DNA from: Nautiliaceae bacterium
Lineage (GTDB): Bacteria; Campylobacterota; Campylobacteria; Campylobacterales; Nautiliaceae
Assembly (NCBI GenBank): GCA_039831155.1
Contig: JBDONT010000037.1
Coordinates: forward strand, 1 to 41,722
DNA: 41,722 nucleotides
Direction: 5' to 3'
The position numbers were made by a program, and so were the translations under genes. Of this stretch, positions 30 to 33,858 are shown one piece after another. How positions within the stretch are numbered: the first letter of the stretch is position 1; each line of letters starts with the position of its first letter. The notes beneath the pieces are model-generated. The model was given only the letters and a program-made list of their open reading frames with translations. It did not search any database and had not been told where the DNA came from.

Positions 30-599
30 ATGAGAGAGATAAGAAGAGTTACTAAAGAGACTAAAATAGAAGTAAAAGTGGATATACAAGGTAACGGTAA
101 AGCTAATATTTCTACGGGGGTCGGATTTTTTGACCATATGTTAGAAACCTTGGCAAAACATAGCGGAATAGATATGGAAGTGTTTTGCGACGGGGATATA
201 GATGTGGATTATCATCATACGGTTGAAGATGTGGGTATTGTGTTGGGGCAGGCTCTTTATGATGAGGTGTTTCCTATTGAAAATATAGAAAGATTTTCTA
301 ATGTTATTGCGATTTTGGATGAGGCTGCGGTTGAGGTTGATTTGGATATAGGAGGAAGACCTTATCTTGTGTATGAAATGCCAAGAGAGGGGGCTATTAG
401 AGATTTTGATTTGGAACTTGTGGAAGAATTTTTTAAATCTCTTGTGTTTAATTTTAAAATAGCGGCTCACATTGTTTATAAAAGAGGAACGAATAAACAT
501 CATATAGTTGAGAGTGCGTTTAAATCGTTTGCAGTGGCACTAAGACGAGCATTGACTTATAGAGAATCCGGAATTCCGTCTACTAAAGGGGTATTATGA
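30..599 (+). CDS. hisB: Imidazoleglycerol-phosphate dehydratase
   Basis: RVTKET, TGVGFFDHML, DYHHTVED, NKHHIVE and PSTKGVL motifs. Confidence 0.97.
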   Translation: MREIRRVTKETKIEVKVDIQGNGKANISTGVGFFDHMLETLAKHSGIDMEVFCDGDIDVDYHHTVEDVGIVLGQALYDEVFPIENIERFSNVIAILDEAAVEVDLDIGGRPYLVYEMPREGAIRDFDLELVEEFFKSLVFNFKIAAHIVYKRGTNKHHIVESAFKSFAVALRRALTYRESGIPSTKGVL

Positions 600-10234: not shown

Positions 10235-11203
10235 ATGAATTTTAGAGACCCTCTTTTTAATTTGATAGTTTTTTTCAGTATTTTGCTCTTTGCGGCTTTG
10301 CTTACTATAGCCCTTGGGAAAATAAGAGAGTATTTTAGGGATAAAAGATTAAAAAAATTTTTAGAAGAGTTTGATTATATAAAAATCGAAAATTTAAAAC
10401 TTGACAAATCCTCTATAGATGCTCTTTATCTTTTGGCTAAAGCGTACGAAAAAGAGGGGGATTTTGAGAAGTCTTTAAAGATTTATTTATGGATTAGTAA
10501 AAACGTAAAAAGCGTTGAGATAATAAAACATATAGCAAAACTTTACTTCAAAGCCGGATTTTTGGAAAAAGCGAAAAATAGCGTTTATCAAGTACTATCC
10601 ACCAGACCCAGGGATGTTGAGATGCTTAAACTGTTGATTTTAATAGATGAAAAATTATGTAATTTAAAAGAGATAGTCGATGTTTTAGAGATATTTGAAG
10701 AACTTGAAATATCTTTAGAAGAAGAAAAAGCGAATGCTCTTTTTAAATTGGCCTTAAACAATAAATGTAATATAGAGTTTTGTGAAGGTATTAAAAGTTT
10801 AGAAGATGTTTATCAAAATTATCCTTTTGTGAAAAGAGAATATTTAAAGGAGATGTTTTTAATAGAACCCAAAAAAGCGTACGAAGAGATAAATGATGAT
10901 GAGGTATATGAATTTTTGGATTTGTATTGGTATAGAAACGATATACCTAAAGAAGATAAGTTTAAAAACGTTTTAGCTGCCAAACACTTACTAAAGTGTG
11001 ATAAAAAAGCACCTTTTGAGATAGAAGTATTAAAACAGGTCGACAAAAATCTGGCGGATTTGGAGTTTGAATATATTTGTAAAAACTGTAAAAAAGTGTT
11101 TCCTCTTTATTCTACAAGATGTCCTAACTGTTATTCTCTTTTTAAGCAAAAGTTGATTTTTAACGTTGTTGAAAAAAAGGATTTGAATTTAACGGAGTTT
11201 TAA
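10235..11203 (+). CDS. LapB/YciM-like TPR membrane protein with C-terminal rubredoxin-like Cys4
   Basis: N-terminal TM helix, TPR-like helices, YICKNC...RCPNC. Confidence 0.7.
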   Translation: MNFRDPLFNLIVFFSILLFAALLTIALGKIREYFRDKRLKKFLEEFDYIKIENLKLDKSSIDALYLLAKAYEKEGDFEKSLKIYLWISKNVKSVEIIKHIAKLYFKAGFLEKAKNSVYQVLSTRPRDVEMLKLLILIDEKLCNLKEIVDVLEIFEELEISLEEEKANALFKLALNNKCNIEFCEGIKSLEDVYQNYPFVKREYLKEMFLIEPKKAYEEINDDEVYEFLDLYWYRNDIPKEDKFKNVLAAKHLLKCDKKAPFEIEVLKQVDKNLADLEFEYICKNCKKVFPLYSTRCPNCYSLFKQKLIFNVVEKKDLNLTEF

Positions 11204-11528
11204 AGGTACACCTGTAAGCCGGGTTCTGTTTAGGAGAGTATTTATCTAGGTGCACACTTTGCAGTGCCACTCGTGCGAAGGGTAGAGTTGCAAGGCTTTA
11301 CCATCCCTTCTTGCTGCGGAGTGGGTTTGCCAGCTGGGTATATCGCTATACCCACTGGTGGGCTCTTACCCCACCGTTTCACCCTTGCCTGTGAGCATAA
11401 GCTCCATCGGCGGTTTGGTTTCTGTGGCACTTTCCCTCGCCTTACGGCGGCAGCCCGTTAGGCTGACCCCTGCCTTGCTGCAGCCCGGACTTTCCTCTGG
11501 TTTCCCAGCACTCTCTCGGTGTACCTTT
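11202..11528 (-). ncRNA. rnpB: RNase P RNA
   Basis: Minus strand shows GAGGAAAGTCCGGGC, GAAAGTGCCACAGAAA and ACAGAACCCGGCTTA conserved motifs; termini pair as P1 (AAAGGTACACC/GGTGTACCTTT); GC-rich island. Confidence 0.97.
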
Positions 11529-29299: not shown

Positions 29300-30997
29300 A
29301 TGAAGATGACCGGTGCTCAAATAGTAATTGAATCTTTGATTAAAGAAAATGTGGAAGTAGTATTCGGATACCCAGGTGGGGCTATAATGAATGTTTATGA
29401 CGAAATATATAAACAAGACTCTTTTAAACATATTTTGGCAAAGCACGAACAAGGTGCCGTGCATATGGCTGACGGATATGCAAGGGCTAGCGGAAAAGTA
29501 GGCGTTGCGATGGTAACAAGTGGGCCTGGGCTTACAAATGCGATTACCGGGATAGCAACAGCGTATACAGATTCTATTCCTATGGTGATTATATCGGGAC
29601 AAGTTCCGACAACTGCCATAGGAACGGACGCGTTTCAAGAAGTTGACGCAGTGGGTGTTACAAGACCTATTACAAAGCATAACTTTTTGGTAAAAGACGT
29701 AGAAGATTTGGCGTATATTTTAAAAGAAGCTTTTTATTTGGCAAAATCCGGACGTCCTGGGCCGGTGCACGTGGATATTCCAAAAGACGTAACGATTGCT
29801 AAGACTAAATTTGAATATCCGGAAAAAATAGAATTAAAAACTTATAAACCTACCTATAAAGGTAATAAAAGAGCTATAAAAAGAGCCGTTGAAGCTATTA
29901 AAAAAGCTAAAAGACCGGTGTTTTATATAGGCGGTGGTAGTGTTTTAAGTGGGGCCTATGGGCTTATTAGAGAAATTGTAAAAACTACAAAGATTCCGGC
30001 AGTTGAAACTCTTATGGCCAGAGGAGTTTTAAGATACGACTGTCCTTATTTAATGGGAATGGTAGGGATGCACGGAAGTTATGCCGCTAATATGGCTATG
30101 AATGATGCAGACCTTATTATTTCACTTGGGGCTAGATTTGATGATAGGGTAACCGGAAAAATTGATGAGTTTGCAAAAAATGCGGATATCGTTCATATAG
30201 ATATCGACCCTTCTCAAATCGGAAAAGTAGTGCCTACTAAATATCCGATAGTGGGTGATGTGAAAATGGTGCTTGAAGATATGATACCACTTCTTTTAGA
30301 GGGGATTGATTCAAGCAGATATGAAGATTGGAGAGGTATTTTAAATAGATATAAAGAGCTTTATCCTTTGTCTTATAAAGATAGTGGTGAGGTAATAAAA
30401 CCTCAATGGGTTATTCAAAAAACCGGAGAAATAGCTCCGGAAGACGCAATTATTTCAACGGATGTGGGGCAACATCAGATGTGGACGGCACAGTTTTATC
30501 CGTTTACTTACCCTAGACAGCTTTTAACAAGCGGTGGACTCGGGACTATGGGATTTGGATTTCCGGCAGCCCTTGGAGCTAAAGAAAGTAAAAAAGATAA
30601 AGTGGTTATAAACTTTACAGGTGATGGCAGTATTATGATGAATATTCAAGAGGTGTTGACAGGATACAGATATAAACTTCCGGTAATTAATATCATTTTA
30701 AATAATAATTATTTAGGGATGGTAAGACAGTGGCAAACTATGTTTTATAATGATAGACTCTCTGAAACGGACCTTAGTGACGTACAGCCGGATTTTGTAA
30801 AACTGGCTGAGAGTATGGGAGGAGTTGGATATAGAGTAAAAACAAAAGATGAGTTTGAAAAAGCTTTAAAAGAGGCTATCGATTCTAAAAAAGTTGCATT
30901 TATAGACGTACAGATAGATAGACGCGAGGATGTGCTTCCTATGGTACCACCAAATTCCCCACTTAAAAATATGCTTATATTTAAGGATGAAAAATGA
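29300..30997 (+). CDS. ilvI: Acetolactate synthase large subunit
   Basis: FGYPGG, HEQGA, TSGPG, DVGQHQMW and GDGS...NNNYLGMVRQWQ; TGTTATAAT at 29272. Confidence 0.95.
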   Translation: MKMTGAQIVIESLIKENVEVVFGYPGGAIMNVYDEIYKQDSFKHILAKHEQGAVHMADGYARASGKVGVAMVTSGPGLTNAITGIATAYTDSIPMVIISGQVPTTAIGTDAFQEVDAVGVTRPITKHNFLVKDVEDLAYILKEAFYLAKSGRPGPVHVDIPKDVTIAKTKFEYPEKIELKTYKPTYKGNKRAIKRAVEAIKKAKRPVFYIGGGSVLSGAYGLIREIVKTTKIPAVETLMARGVLRYDCPYLMGMVGMHGSYAANMAMNDADLIISLGARFDDRVTGKIDEFAKNADIVHIDIDPSQIGKVVPTKYPIVGDVKMVLEDMIPLLLEGIDSSRYEDWRGILNRYKELYPLSYKDSGEVIKPQWVIQKTGEIAPEDAIISTDVGQHQMWTAQFYPFTYPRQLLTSGGLGTMGFGFPAALGAKESKKDKVVINFTGDGSIMMNIQEVLTGYRYKLPVINIILNNNYLGMVRQWQTMFYNDRLSETDLSDVQPDFVKLAESMGGVGYRVKTKDEFEKALKEAIDSKKVAFIDVQIDRREDVLPMVPPNSPLKNMLIFKDEK

Positions 30998-31467
30998 AAA
31001 GAATAATTTCCGTAATTTTAGAAAACGAACACGGAGCACTTGCTAGGGTCGTAAATATGTTTGCGGCAAGAGGTTATAATATAACTTCTTTAACCGTCTC
31101 TCCTATCCCAAACAGTGAATTTAGCAGAATGACTATAATGAGTGAGGGAGACCCTAAAATATTTGAACAAATCGTAAAACAGCTTTATAAACTAATACCG
31201 GTATATAAAGTAATTGAAAGTGACGATTTTATTGAAAAAGAGATGGCTATGGTTAAATTTCCTTTAAAAGAGGTAAAAGACAACCTTGCCGATATTGATG
31301 CTCTTGCTAGGTGTTATAATGGAAAAATAAGTAACGTAAATGATAAAAGTGTAGTGGTAAGTGTAGTGGATAGACCGAATAGAATTGATAACTTTTTAAA
31401 AGCGATGCAGGTAAAATATAAAAATCTTGAAGTGGTAAGAAGTGGGGTGAGTGTTATTGAAAGGTAG
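30994..31467 (+). CDS. ilvH: Acetolactate synthase small regulatory subunit
   Basis: ACT domain ENEHGALARV..F..RGYNI.SL; EQIVKQL.KL; EVVRSG. Confidence 0.95.
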   Translation: MKRIISVILENEHGALARVVNMFAARGYNITSLTVSPIPNSEFSRMTIMSEGDPKIFEQIVKQLYKLIPVYKVIESDDFIEKEMAMVKFPLKEVKDNLADIDALARCYNGKISNVNDKSVVVSVVDRPNRIDNFLKAMQVKYKNLEVVRSGVSVIER

Positions 31468-32245
31468 TTATGATAAAACTTTAAGAGAAATTTTTTCGGA
31501 TGTACCGGTAAATTTAATAAAGTTTCTTACAAATCAAGAGATAAAACGTCCTCTTAACCCTTCTTTTCCTTCCATAAAAGAGAGAATAGCCGATTTTTTG
31601 GTTGAGCTTGAAAACGGAGATATTTTTCATTTGGAGATACAGTCCGTTAATGATAAAACAATGCCACGAAGAATGCTTTTTTATGCTCTTTTAATAGAAG
31701 AGAAATATAAAAAATTTCCTATTCAAGTTGTTTTATATGTGGGTAATGAAAAATTAAGAATGCAAAACTTTTATAAAAGAAAAAATTTGGATTATAAATA
31801 TGAGCTTTTCAATATAAAGAATTTGGACTGCAACTATTTAATAAAAAGCCAGAGTATAGAGGATAATTTAATTGCAATTTTATGTAAAATTGACGATGAG
31901 GTGAATTTGCTTAACAGAATTACTTCTCGTCTGTTATCTTTGCCGGATAAAAAAAGGGTTGACTATTTAAAAAAACTTTTTATTCTTGCAAGATTAAGGC
32001 CAAAAGTGTATAATAAATTAGAAGAGTTTTATAAGGAGCAAAAAATGCCTATAGTATTAGACCCTAAGATTGACCCTTTGTATAAGAAGGGTTGGAATGA
32101 AGCTTGGAGTGAGGCTGAAAAAAAAACAAAAATAAAAGATGCTTTGTTGATTATAGAAAAATTTAATATTCCTATTGAAAAAGTGGCAAAAGAGCTTGGG
32201 TTAAAAGAAGATGAAATTAAAAAGGCGTTAAATGAAAATAAGTGA
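31451..32245 (+). CDS. Rpn/YhgA-like PD-(D/E)XK nuclease-family protein
   Basis: YD...R.IF, RIADFLV, HLEIQS, MP.RML.Y and QVVLYVG motifs; C-terminal 4-aa repeats and HTH-like tail. Confidence 0.85.
31986..32047 (+). promoter_or_regulatory. Intragenic sigma70 promoter plus SD and ATG inside the Rpn-like gene
   Basis: TTGCAA (31986-31991)-N17-TATAAT (32009-32014); AAGGAG 32033-32038; ATG 32045. Confidence 0.7.
32045..32245 (+). CDS. Putative nested in-frame 66-aa C-terminal protein (RpnS-like antitoxin)
   Basis: In-frame ATG (codon 199) 6 nt after AAGGAG, with an upstream internal promoter. Confidence 0.6.
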
Positions 32246-33179
32246 AATTTGTAAAATTTTAGAACTTAACTGCGATTTTGAAAAAGATAAAGAGATAAAA
32301 GGGATTAATACTTTACAAGATGCAAATGAGAATGAAATAAGTTTTCTTGAAAATCCTAAATATGTTAAATATCTGAAAAATACAAAAGCTGCTGCAGTAC
32401 TTATAAGAGAAGAGGACGCAGCTAAGTTACCCGAAGGTGTTATTGCTTTAAAGACGGATGAACCTTATTTAAAACTGGCTTATTTAACTAAATATTTCGC
32501 AAAAGAGCCTTGGGTTGAGGGAGGATATCAGATAGCTAAAAGTGCTAAAGTCGACAGTAGCGTAAGGATAGGAAAAGGTGCGAAGATAGGAAATAACGTA
32601 ACGATTATGCCAAACGTTGTAGTAGGTCCGGATGTGGAGATAGCGGAGGGGAGTGTTATTTATCCTAATGTGACTCTTTATAGGGATACGAAAATAGGGA
32701 AAAACGTAAAAATTCACGCCGGTAGCGTAATAGGAAGTGATGGTTTTGGATATGCTCATACAAAAGAAGGTGCTCACGTAAAAATTTATCATTTAGGGCG
32801 TGTGGTAATTGAAGACGATGTCGAAATAGGAGCGAATACTACAATAGACAGAGGAGTTTTTGGAGAGACCAGAGTAAAAAGAGGTACCATTGTTGACAAT
32901 TTGGTTCAAATAGGACATAACTGTGAGATAGGAGAATATTCAATTTTGGTTTCTCAAGTTGGATTATCCGGTAGTTCTAAACTTGGAAGAAACGTTATTA
33001 TGGGTGGTCAAAGTGCAACGGCCGGGCATTTGGAGATTGCTCCTTTTACTACTATTGCCGCAAGGGGAGGTGTTACTAAATCTATAAAAGAACCCGGTGT
33101 TTATTCCGGTTTTCCTCTAATGCCTCATAAAGCTTGGTTAAAATTACAGGGAGTTTTACAAAGGCTTCTTAAAAAATAG
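32232..33179 (+). CDS. lpxD: UDP-3-O-acylglucosamine N-acyltransferase
   Basis: ISFL.NPKY, hexapeptide repeats, [17 protein letters not shown] and DNLVQIGHN. Confidence 0.96.
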
Positions 33180-33225
33180 TTTTTCTCTCTCTTTTTGATA
33201 TAATTGTGTAAAAAAAGAGGAATAG

Positions 33226-33858
33226 ATGAGAGTTGTTTTTTTATTGATTTTAGGGCTTTTTTTAAGCGCGTATGAAGAAGTTTCGATTTTAAACGTTAAT
33301 GCCAATAAAGTTGTTCTTTCAAAAAGCGTTCAAAAGGGTGTTAGTGGTTATGTTATTTGTAAAGACAATAATTTAAGTATTATTTGTGCAAGGGCTGTAG
33401 GGGATTTAAAAAAAGCGACTCTTTATCCTTATGAAGATTTAAAAAACAGTGCTTTTGCTTTGCCGGTCGTATTACCTAAAAAGCACGATAAGATAATTTT
33501 TAAAAAAGATTATGAGAGAGTTTTGATTATAGCTCCTAATCAAGACGAGTATTTAAAAGTTAAATCTTTTTATAAAAATGCTACTTTTATCTCTCCCGAT
33601 ATTTTTGCCGCTTATATTGATGATATTCCTACAAAAGAAGATTTTATAAACTTTGCCAAAATTTTTAATATAGGAAGGATGGTTTTTGTATTAGATAGGG
33701 TATATGAGGTTGATTCTTTTAGTTTTTATGCAGTTAAAGTTTACGGAAAATTTAAAGCAGCTTATAAAAAAGCTTTCTTTACAACTTATCCTAAATTCGA
33801 TATAAAAGGAAAAAATTTTATAAATTATTATAAAAACTTAATAAAGGGTGCAAAATGA
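33226..33858 (+). CDS. Exported protein, PgbA N-terminal (plasminogen-binding)-like
   Basis: Signal peptide, G.SG.V, L..SAFALP, Y.R.LIIAPN and PDIFAA; sits upstream of glcD as pgbA does in Helicobacter (recalled); TGATATAAT at 33196. Confidence 0.65.
   Translation: MRVVFLLILGLFLSAYEEVSILNVNANKVVLSKSVQKGVSGYVICKDNNLSIICARAVGDLKKATLYPYEDLKNSAFALPVVLPKKHDKIIFKKDYERVLIIAPNQDEYLKVKSFYKNATFISPDIFAAYIDDIPTKEDFINFAKIFNIGRMVFVLDRVYEVDSFSFYAVKVYGKFKAAYKKAFFTTYPKFDIKGKNFINYYKNLIKGAK

Follow-up and report, generated by a model that had tools for sequence, protein, structure and literature searches.

A probable divergent Rpn-type gene-within-gene module between ilvH and lpxD in a Nautiliaceae genome

Introduction

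Bacterial Rpn genes are known to specify two proteins in the same reading frame, a long nuclease that is toxic and a small protein that blocks it (Zhong et al. 2023, PNAS, PMC10400941). In Escherichia coli rpnA the internal start of the small protein, RpnA-S, has been proven experimentally, and the substitutions K240R, E241D and M244L together abolish it (PMC10400941). RpnA-S is described there as a three-helix dimer whose first helix is the dimerisation helix; tetrad repeats start 8–20 residues after the internal Met and differ among strains, and their number sets specificity. In addition, the E. coli rpn genes are reported to contain internal transcription starts for the short product (PMC10400941). 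Here we describe an open reading frame (ORF) that probably has the same design in a Nautiliaceae bacterium. It occupies positions 31451–32245 of the plus strand of contig JBDONT010000037.1 (assembly GCA_039831155.1), a stretch of 41,722 nucleotides that was analysed whole and is called the window below, and it lies between ilvH and lpxD. An earlier reading made from the letters of this DNA without database searches (the sequence-only reading) had proposed that the ORF is an Rpn-like nuclease with a complete gene hidden inside it, arranged as in the enterobacterial Rpn proteins.

The long/short design has a wider reach than E. coli. The rpn of Clostridioides difficile likewise yields a small protein, and for homologues in C. 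difficile, B. cereus, Bacteroides fragilis and Leptospira interrogans both the long/short design and the tetrad repeats have already been claimed; the paper states that the architecture is broadly conserved (PMC10400941). The same source gives DUF4351 as the annotation of stand-alone RpnS genes and names KGIE as the repeat unit of RpnC. A commentary on the Rpn long/short work has also been published (PMC10400984). Within the literature collection that we searched, the design was treated by the 2023 paper, its preprint and its commentary only, and among the papers listed in a search for Rpn in vent taxa there was none with the term 'recombination-promoting nuclease'.

A conserved start codon inside the gene

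We consider it likely, with a probability of roughly three in four, that ORF 31451–32245 is a divergent Rpn-type gene-within-gene module that was inserted between ilvH and lpxD and is read in two ways. This assignment follows from a conserved internal start, the rare codons in which that start is written, a spacing like that of rpnA, the fold of RpnA-S and tetrad repeats that vary among relatives, and the same evidence supports the architecture that the sequence-only reading had proposed.

The internal start was found as that reading had described it: AAGGAG, a candidate Shine-Dalgarno (SD) sequence, is followed by the spacer CAAAAA (6 nt) and an in-frame ATG at 32045–32047, from which a 66-residue product would be made (coordinates of all features are collected in Table 1). 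The DNA of E. coli K-12 rpnA reads AAGGAG-N6-ATG, with spacing identical to that of the window gene, and at the protein level K240-E241-x-x-M244 of E. coli RpnA parallels K195-E196-x-x-M199 of the window protein. The host genome carries four rpn paralogues that share about 30% protein identity; conservation of the start across paralogues had been put forward as a check of the idea, and all four read AAGGAG-N6-ATG at the aligned position.

The start is conserved well beyond this genome. Our set of related genomes comprised 41 genomes, 12 of them with a match, and gave 30 loci, of which 10 were dropped (fragments, decayed copies and one duplicate) to leave 20 full-length genes. A strong SD with an in-frame ATG was present in every one of the 20, in 19 as exactly AAGGAG and in one as AAAGAGGAG. 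A scan of GTDB with one genome per species produced 24 loci, from which 2 duplicates and 9 short ORFs were removed; the 13 genes that were added brought the total to 33. GGAG lay 5–13 nt upstream of the aligned Met in 31 of these 33 genes, compared with 5 of 200 other in-frame ATGs in the same genes, and 10 of the 11 clusters formed at 50% identity retained this arrangement. Judged by these counts, the combination of an SD with the internal ATG is clearly beyond what chance would give.

Furthermore, the codons themselves are unusual. Across the genome AAG is used for 11.5% of Lys and GAG for 28.7% of Glu, and the pair K-E is written AAGGAG in 149 of 5584 cases (2.7%). At the K195 column of the alignment 20 of 22 sequences use AAG, and at the E196 column 25 of 30 use GAG, whereas control conserved columns had AAG in 1 of 23 and 2 of 20 sequences (Lys) and GAG in 10 of 32, 10 of 25 and 3 of 21 (Glu). 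The GGAG core was retained even where the encoded residues differ (E-E, Q-E, E-V). The aligned Met was present in 27 of 29 close homologues, the remaining two having L and V. In a wider set of 151 sequences, made up of the window protein and the 150 top-ranking representatives at 50% identity, the column of this Met is covered by 138, and 124 of these have Met there, the others having I (4), L (4), V (3), D (1), E (1) and R (1). These comparisons show that selection on the internal start acts on the nucleotides, beyond the residues alone.

We also asked how often this signature occurs in the host genome. Only 8 of 7191 in-frame ATGs within 1272 long ORFs are preceded by AAGGAG at a distance of 5–9 nt, and 4 of these 8 belong to the rpn paralogues; the other four lie in an aspartate kinase, a K+ channel, AhpC and a 168-codon ORF. 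Aspartate kinase, with its alpha and beta products, and K+ channels of the MthK type are classic cases of in-frame internal starts: behind a strong SD the C-terminal domain is made as a separate protein, which joins its counterpart in the long form and completes the assembly. Both resemble Rpn in that SD and ATG stand at a domain boundary, here with the same AAGGAG signature, and they differ from it in that their short form completes an assembly whereas the Rpn short form inhibits.

In the host's aspartate kinase (L061, G000:C21:14163–15371), AAGGAG and an in-frame ATG at codon 247 lie between the kinase domain (1–227) and the ACT domains (267–397), which presumably corresponds to the in-frame overlap of alpha and beta subunits described for the enzyme of other bacteria. 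The K+ channel (L062, G000:C43:13134–14276) has a pore (45–117) fused to TrkA_N/TrkA_C, and its AAGGAG and in-frame ATG at codon 131 fall between pore and RCK; we take this to resemble the separately made soluble RCK domain of MthK-type channels. The 'internal' Met48 of AhpC is probably the true start of that protein. In the fourth case, a 168-codon ORF on the minus strand that has no Pfam match (L064, G000:C41:20759–21265), AAGGAG with ATG at codon 131 would give a 38-residue product.

SD sequences are in general use in this organism: GGAG precedes 309 of 1306 first start codons (23.7%) as against 152 of 7233 internal ATGs (2.1%). This demonstration is an indirect one, because we did not find the anti-SD end of 16S rRNA in the assembly. 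The RNA near the internal start of the window gene is predicted to be unstructured (−6.6 kcal/mol, z +0.61).

A different explanation of the conservation would be that K-E-x-x-M is kept for protein reasons, as a structural hinge in a single nuclease from which no small protein is made. Met199 does lie at a domain boundary, where a conserved residue could be structural: in the AlphaFold2 (AF2) model it stands at the end of helix 184–197, ahead of a low-confidence linker and three helices. The expression data, being limited to contigs from RNA libraries, also leave room for this view. It does not account, however, for the retention of AAG and GAG at these two columns and not at other conserved K and E columns, nor for a GGAG core that is kept while the residues differ. 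Moreover, the substitutions of the Met are mostly I, L or V (11 of 14), which are possible start codons, an identical DNA design is the proven start in E. coli, and the signature marks other likely internal or real starts in the host genome. We therefore regard a purely structural role of these residues as highly improbable.

A three-helix small product with variable tetrad repeats

The sequence-only reading had noted two further properties of the small product, a 12-bp imperfect tandem repeat and a tail resembling a helix-turn-helix (HTH), and both were recovered. The repeat units, TGGAATGAAGCT and TGGAGTGAGGCT, are identical at 10 of 12 bases and code for W-N-E-A and W-S-E-A. The tail profile matches the HTH of gamma-delta resolvase (E 0.0027), and the model of the tail contains three helices. 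Tandem Repeats Finder did not call the 12-nt repeat on the DNA alone; its meaning comes from the comparison with relatives, not from the DNA by itself.

That comparison showed that the number of units varies. There are two W-x-E-A units in the window copy and in L065, which is 98% identical to it, and six in L066 and L067 (+48 nt); the decayed copies (genome G005, locus L068 and sequencing run X4) have one, L005 has four, and P0002–P0015 have two to six. The three other paralogues of the host carry E/Q-K-G-I units. Pairs of orthologues of these other paralogues differ at the repeat site by insertions or deletions (indels) of 24, 36, 36+12, 36 and 48 nt, all of them multiples of 12, and in one pair with 96.7% DNA identity an indel of 36 nt at the repeat is the only one. 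The tetrads of the window product start at its residue 17, within the range of 8–20 given for E. coli Rpn (PMC10400941).

The fold of the small product points in the same direction. Among 48,161 representatives of the PDB, the structure of E. coli RpnA-S (7th0_A) ranked second for the model of the whole protein, with Z 6.4, a root-mean-square deviation (rmsd) of 1.4 Å over 46 of 46 residues and 20% identity (model residues 212–258), and it ranked first for the tail. In a second structure comparison with the tail model, 7th0 ranked third (Z 5.6), model residues 14–60 being aligned to RpnA 244–289, and Foldseek gave a template-modelling (TM) score of 0.69 by target for the tail against RpnA-S. 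A search for a stand-alone RpnS-like gene in the host genome gave none; its 4 matches were only the tails of the four rpn genes.

Directly 3' of the repeats comes a run of nine A (32118–32126). It is shorter by 2 nt in the decayed copies (G005, L068 and X4), which results in a frameshift of the small ORF, and it is likely to be a slippage site.

The nuclease half and its family

An AF2 model of the whole protein, built with 29 sequences, has a mean predicted local distance difference test (pLDDT) score of 83.5. It consists of an alpha/beta core (residues 1–145), helices in 150–197, a low-confidence linker at about 198–219 and C-terminal helices at 209–238, 242–249 and 253–263. Across 29 aligned homologues D48, H60, E62 and Q64 are invariant. 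The best structural match of the whole model among the same PDB representatives was the nuclease domain of NucS/EndoMS (2vld_B; Z 6.7, rmsd 2.9, 100 residues), and Foldseek also returned EndoMS (E 6e-3). The N-terminal half is thus modelled as a PD-(D/E)XK nuclease fold with the motif D...E-x-Q(S); because the Z values are middling, the call rests on fold and motif jointly. Searching the PDB by sequence with the whole protein produced no match at E ≤ 10.

The family best matching the protein in sequence was TIGR01784, 'Rpn family recombination-promoting nuclease/putative transposase' (35.0 bits, E 1.3e-8), in which residues 43–258 align with positions 51–272 of a 273-position profile. Among the close homologues, PF12784 was matched at E ≤ 0.01 by 16 of 29, PF04754 weakly by 5 of 29 (best E 4e-4), and DUF4351 by the tails of 3 of 29. 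With a profile made from the 29 close homologues, matches at E ≤ 0.001 numbered 4155 cluster representatives, and those at E ≤ 1e-30 numbered 528, which places the gene in a large group only partly covered by curated models. The window copy and L065 each have an uninterrupted reading frame of 264 codons in which all 17 family-invariant residues are present. Taken together, these matches support placing ORF 31451–32245 as a divergent member of the Rpn/PDDEXK_2 group of PD-(D/E)XK nucleases, outside PF04754 and below the cut-offs of TIGR01784 and PF12784.

Findings that count against the assignment

A number of findings weigh against an Rpn-type module, and we set them out here together with the alternatives that they suggest. 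The first concerns family membership. The window protein misses the curated cut-off of TIGR01784 (52.1 bits), and its paralogues and the L005 orthologue, at 31.5–43.3 bits, also fall below it, so that five proteins of this clade score about 31–43 against 52.1. The match to PF12784 (PDDEXK_2; 26.3 bits, E 7.4e-6) covers residues 38–86 only and lies under the gathering cut-off of 27.4. PF04754 (Transposase_31/YhgA-like) had no match to the window protein at E ≤ 1, and a six-frame search of the host genome for this family returned nothing. DUF4351 (PF14261) was matched neither by the window protein nor by the 66-residue product. Finally, when the family profile was compared by hhalign with the single E. 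coli RpnA sequence, the tail only was aligned (window 220–257 with RpnA 248–288; E 7e-4, probability 26%).

The second concerns the fold of the tail. DNA-binding domains came out near-equal to RpnA-S, less than 1 Z unit away (DeoR Z 5.7, TrpR Z 5.7–5.8), and by its model the tail is a generic HTH-like three-helix unit. Since other HTH domains tie within 1 Z unit, the match to RpnA-S is consistent with the assignment and not specific to it. On the strength of these values, which equal the RpnA-S match, and of the resolvase match, the small product might be chiefly an HTH regulator that binds DNA, for instance at its own or the lpxD promoter, and not a direct inhibitor of the nuclease. The domain to which it is homologous in E. 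coli, however, directly binds and blocks the long protein, and there the repeat number sets specificity (PMC10400941). In addition, hypervariable repeats suit a helix used in pairing, not a surface that binds an operator. We think a regulatory role in place of inhibition very unlikely.

The third concerns expression. Contigs from two RNA-library runs of one sample, X1 and X2, are identical to 31311–31767 and 31830–33300 and to 31321–31804 and 31813–33300 of the window; the gene is covered by them, and its 3' half is joined to lpxD within one contig. Such contigs cannot reveal start, strand or level, and carry-over of DNA is possible. That both proteins are made from the gene is something that we infer from homology.

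The fourth concerns context and upkeep. There is no defence-island context, a setting that is typical of the family though not strictly part of its definition; the adjoining genes ilvB, ilvH and lpxD are housekeeping genes, and PADLOC gave no match for the window protein. A decayed copy stands at the same site in the same-genus genome G005, in L068 and in the DNA run X4, with deletions of 44, 32, 1 and 14 nt, of which the 14-nt deletion also breaks the small ORF; the genes flanking the decayed copies have 97–100% protein identity to those of the window. To judge from these copies, the window-type rpn is dispensable. Furthermore, the copy in L066 and L067 is truncated, starting at about residue 87 and lacking D48, E62 and Q64.

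These observations raise the possibility that the gene is a decaying passenger with no present function in toxin-antitoxin action or defence, whose signals are inherited and not yet eroded. The decayed and truncated copies would fit such a passenger, as would the absence of defence context and a patchy distribution, with a match in 12 of 41 related genomes and none in two closed genomes of the same genus. Yet the window copy and L065 have remained intact with their full set of family-invariant residues, and the ratio of non-synonymous to synonymous divergence (dN/dS) against L067, at a synonymous divergence (dS) of about 0.9, comes to 0.09 in the middle part and to the same value in the RpnS part, as under purifying selection. 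Loss at the level of strains is, besides, usual for defence and toxin-antitoxin genes. A mere passenger is in our view unlikely, and a functional Rpn-type module remains our preferred reading.

The promoter-like site and lpxD

The sequence-only reading had included a promoter, TTGCAA-N17-TATAAT, in the hidden gene. The site itself is present, with TTGCAA at 31986–31991, a 17-nt spacer and TATAAT at 32009–32014, but it is not a feature of the family: in 19 of 20 homologues TATAAT has no counterpart, and the stretch 22–50 nt before the ATG resembles a −10 element no more closely than other parts of the gene do. This, too, speaks against the assignment insofar as a promoter was made part of the module. 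These results, and the absence of suppressed change in 16 homologue pairs described below, led us to reject the idea that the family conserves a −10 element at a set distance from its internal ATG.

The region contains 12 promoter-like sites, compared with 9.4 ± 3.4 in shuffled sequences, and so shows no excess. The genome has, per kb and strand, 0.18 perfect TATAAT sites with a −35 element matching in at least 4 of 6 positions, and about 0.01 would therefore be expected in any 60 nt. The argument from chance is weaker here than for the SD and ATG.

Divergence offers a further indication. Between the window and the diverged L067, codons 179–198 (31985–32044) show 1 synonymous and 0 non-synonymous changes where 6.9 synonymous changes are expected (Poisson P 0.008), the reference being codons 100–178 with 27 synonymous changes in 41.5 synonymous sites. 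The bin 32001–32050, with 1 mismatch in 50 against L066 and L067, has diverged less than any other of the 33 bins. These two metagenome records are nearly identical to each other and count as one independent comparison. In 16 other homologue pairs, synonymous change was not suppressed in the 20 codons before the ATG (P 0.10–0.99). On this pattern of substitutions, TTGCAA-N17-TATAAT is probably a real promoter that is specific to the lpxD-linked copy.

Such a promoter may chiefly drive lpxD, an explanation that competes with the promoter part of the sequence-only reading and leaves the gene-within-gene untouched. On this view the insertion, of about 765 nt, would have separated the essential lpxD from the signals that once lay upstream of it; where rpn is absent, the gap from ilvH to lpxD is about 50–320 nt. 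No terminator-like site was found by a terminator scan on the plus strand between 32045 and lpxD. In L067 the ORF upstream of the truncated rpn is on the opposite strand, and lpxD must therefore be transcribed there from within the rpn remnant or just before it. The absence of a TATAAT counterpart in 19 of 20 homologues and the restriction of the conserved block to the lpxD-linked pair (1 change against 6.9 expected, with 16 pairs showing no such loss) agrees with a role for lpxD. That block comes, on the other hand, from one independent comparison, a single P of 0.008 is modest among 17 pair tests, and a short recombination tract could equally have left an identical block. The internal transcription starts of the E. 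coli rpn genes, moreover, make a promoter for RpnS unremarkable (PMC10400941). We put a promoter that mainly serves lpxD at somewhat under an even chance.

An RpnS-like protein would need no promoter of its own, because any mRNA running across the gene, that of the ilvBH operon included, would serve for its translation. Nor are service to lpxD and service to the small protein mutually exclusive; a transcript from TTGCAA-N17-TATAAT would carry the rpnS-like ORF and run on into the essential lpxD.

Insertion, spread and loss

In five genomes of the same family that lack rpn, lpxD comes directly after ilvH, with the gaps given above, and the tail of ilvH is conserved; in the window this tail supplies the start codon of rpn. 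It follows that the gene is an insertion of little more than a coding sequence (CDS). The genome that hosts it at ilvH/lpxD is Nautiliales-type. Loci from the GTDB scan carried the titles Nautiliales, Campylobacterales, Sulfurospirillum, Sulfurimonas, Hydrogenothermaceae, Blastocatellia and Bryobacteraceae. Homologues that are 31–45% identical and have both SD and Met were observed in Hydrogenothermaceae, Blastocatellia and Bryobacteraceae (L047, L049, L050, L055, L053 and L057). The occurrence of homologues across these phyla points to transfer between phyla, as read from their sequences.

The truncated copies (L066:1–600 and L067:1–832) have kept the promoter-like block, the SD and lpxD, together with the small ORF, which is intact and contains six W-x-E-A units. 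They are preceded by an ORF on the opposite strand, which runs off the contig; that of L067, with 72 residues, had no Pfam or NCBIfam match and is not called a transposase.

From these features a wider scenario can be drawn, which we offer tentatively and think doubtful as a whole. In this vent lineage rpn would spread as bare CDS cassettes, each placed between the stop codon of one essential operon gene and the start codon of the next, with host transcription and translational coupling feeding the toxin. lpxD would then have captured the internal promoter, which would make the 3' half (promoter and rpnS) unlosable even after deletion of the nuclease half, as in L066 and L067. This would be a genomic 'addiction' by way of promoter capture and not by way of a toxin.

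A direct repeat, AATTTGGA(T/C)T, within 31790–31835 of the window flanks the 32-nt stretch that is deleted in G005. The break in the X1 and X2 contigs, at about 31767–31830, coincides with this direct repeat, and is probably an assembly effect of mixed strains with and without the deletion rather than a transcript end.

Proposed mechanism and comparison with E. coli Rpn

If the window gene is indeed an Rpn-type module, it could work as follows. The long, RpnL-like protein of 264 residues would start at GTG 31451 or TTG 31457, both within the 3' end of ilvH, without a good ribosome-binding site; little of it would be made, and its synthesis would be coupled to translation of the operon. We expect a low level because, when start regions were compared among relatives, the starts of the long form mostly had no SD and abutted or overlapped the stop of the upstream gene. 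The short, RpnS-like protein of 66 residues would be made in excess from its ATG behind a perfect AAGGAG-N6 in unstructured RNA. By homology with E. coli RpnA-E, it would be the same three-helix domain as the end of the long form, and would pair with the long form through the long first helix that bears the W-x-E-A units, holding the nuclease inactive. The number, and the type, of the repeats would decide which short form fits which long form, and the four paralogues would in this way be insulated from one another. By analogy we infer that the long form is a toxic DNA nuclease neutralised by the short form and that the pair defends against phage.

The likeness to E. coli RpnA-E and RpnP2 extends over several levels. 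Both combine a PD-(D/E)XK nuclease and a C-terminal domain that varies, and both have an in-frame start of the form AAGGAG-N6-ATG (rpnA), a three-helix small product (7th0) with strain-variable tetrads in the first helix, several paralogues per genome and a patchy distribution. There are also differences. The N-terminal domain of the window protein is not detectably PF04754, and the small product has 13 more residues ahead of the helix than RpnA-S. The repeat unit is W-x-E-A, whereas the tetrads of E. coli Rpn are of a charged/Gly type; the E/Q-K-G-I units of the three other paralogues are like the KGIE of RpnC. The window gene stands within a housekeeping operon that it overlaps at both ends, not in a defence island, and, unlike E. 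coli Rpn, it is known from its sequence and a predicted structure.

The rpn genes of C. difficile, B. cereus, Bacteroides fragilis and Leptospira interrogans belong to other lineages, and the window gene extends this list without changing the picture. It is a sound but unsurprising new example of Rpn, since the architecture and its breadth across phyla have already been published, and the finding opens no new question. What it adds is a clean and comparatively well-supported long/short Rpn example from thermophilic vent Campylobacterota and their neighbours, in a clade that curated hidden Markov models (HMMs) miss and whose genes genome annotation would in consequence label hypothetical. The internal start can be recognised from DNA alone, by a rare AAG-GAG at one place and by indels of the 12-nt repeat. 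In addition, searching this compact genome for AAGGAG, 5–9 nt and an in-frame ATG selects nearly only genes of kinds in which internal starts are known or likely, and is usable as a screen for genes within genes.

Gene neighbourhood and other features of the window

Neighbouring genes were named by NCBIfam matches that exceed the cut-offs (Table 1). The window ORF shares 17 nt with ilvH and 14 nt with lpxD; the ATG of lpxD lies upstream of the rpn stop codon, which is 14 nt into lpxD.

Table 1. Coordinates of the Rpn-like gene, its parts and the adjoining genes in the window.
Feature	Position	Strand	Basis
Full-length Rpn-like ORF (RpnL-like, 264 aa)	31451..32245	+	ORF list; TIGR01784 and PF12784 matches
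PD-(D/E)XK nuclease core, N-terminal, residues 1-145	31451..31885	+	AF2, structure matches, invariant residues
Putative catalytic residues D48, E62, Q64	31592-31594, 31634-31636, 31640-31642	+	motif H-L-E-I-Q-S
Helical middle region, residues 150-197	31898..32041	+	AF2 helices H150-163, H166-180, H184-197, then low-confidence linker
TTGCAA-N17-TATAAT, 10/12 consensus matches	31986..32014	+	promoter scan
SD AAGGAG, codons K195-E196	32033..32038	+	6 nt upstream of internal ATG; homologue conservation
Internal in-frame ORF, RpnS-like, 66 aa + stop, from Met199	32045..32245	+	boundary of helical region and C-terminal domain
Long first helix of small product, its residues 11-40	32075..32164	+	AF2 of tail alone, mean pLDDT 69.1
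Two W-x-E-A tetrad repeats, 12-nt units, from residue 17 of small product	32093..32116	+	
Helices 2 and 3 of small product, HTH-like (H44-51, H55-65)	32174..32239	+	AF2 of tail alone
Acetolactate synthase large subunit (ilvB)	29300-30997		NCBIfam match above cut-off
ilvH (acetolactate synthase small subunit)	30994-31467	+	NF008864, 165.9 bits
lpxD	32232-33179	+	TIGR01853, 387 bits

The tight fit between same-strand neighbours is shared by the other paralogues of this genome (1.53 Mb, 32% G+C), which are flanked by IF-2 and RbfA (L002, on G000:C43), GreA and Dut (L003, on G000:C23), and RpoD and NadE (L004, on G000:C38). In these three gene rows, as in IlvH|rpn|LpxD of the window, the start and stop of rpn overlap or abut the neighbours on the same strand. 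Same-strand ORFs at 25 nt or less on both sides were found for 15 of 20 homologues, kin that are not independent, compared with 462 of 1461 genes (32%) of this genome.

Elsewhere in the window, the only Rfam match at gathering scores was an RNase P RNA of bacterial class A (252 bits), at 11199–11527 on the minus strand.

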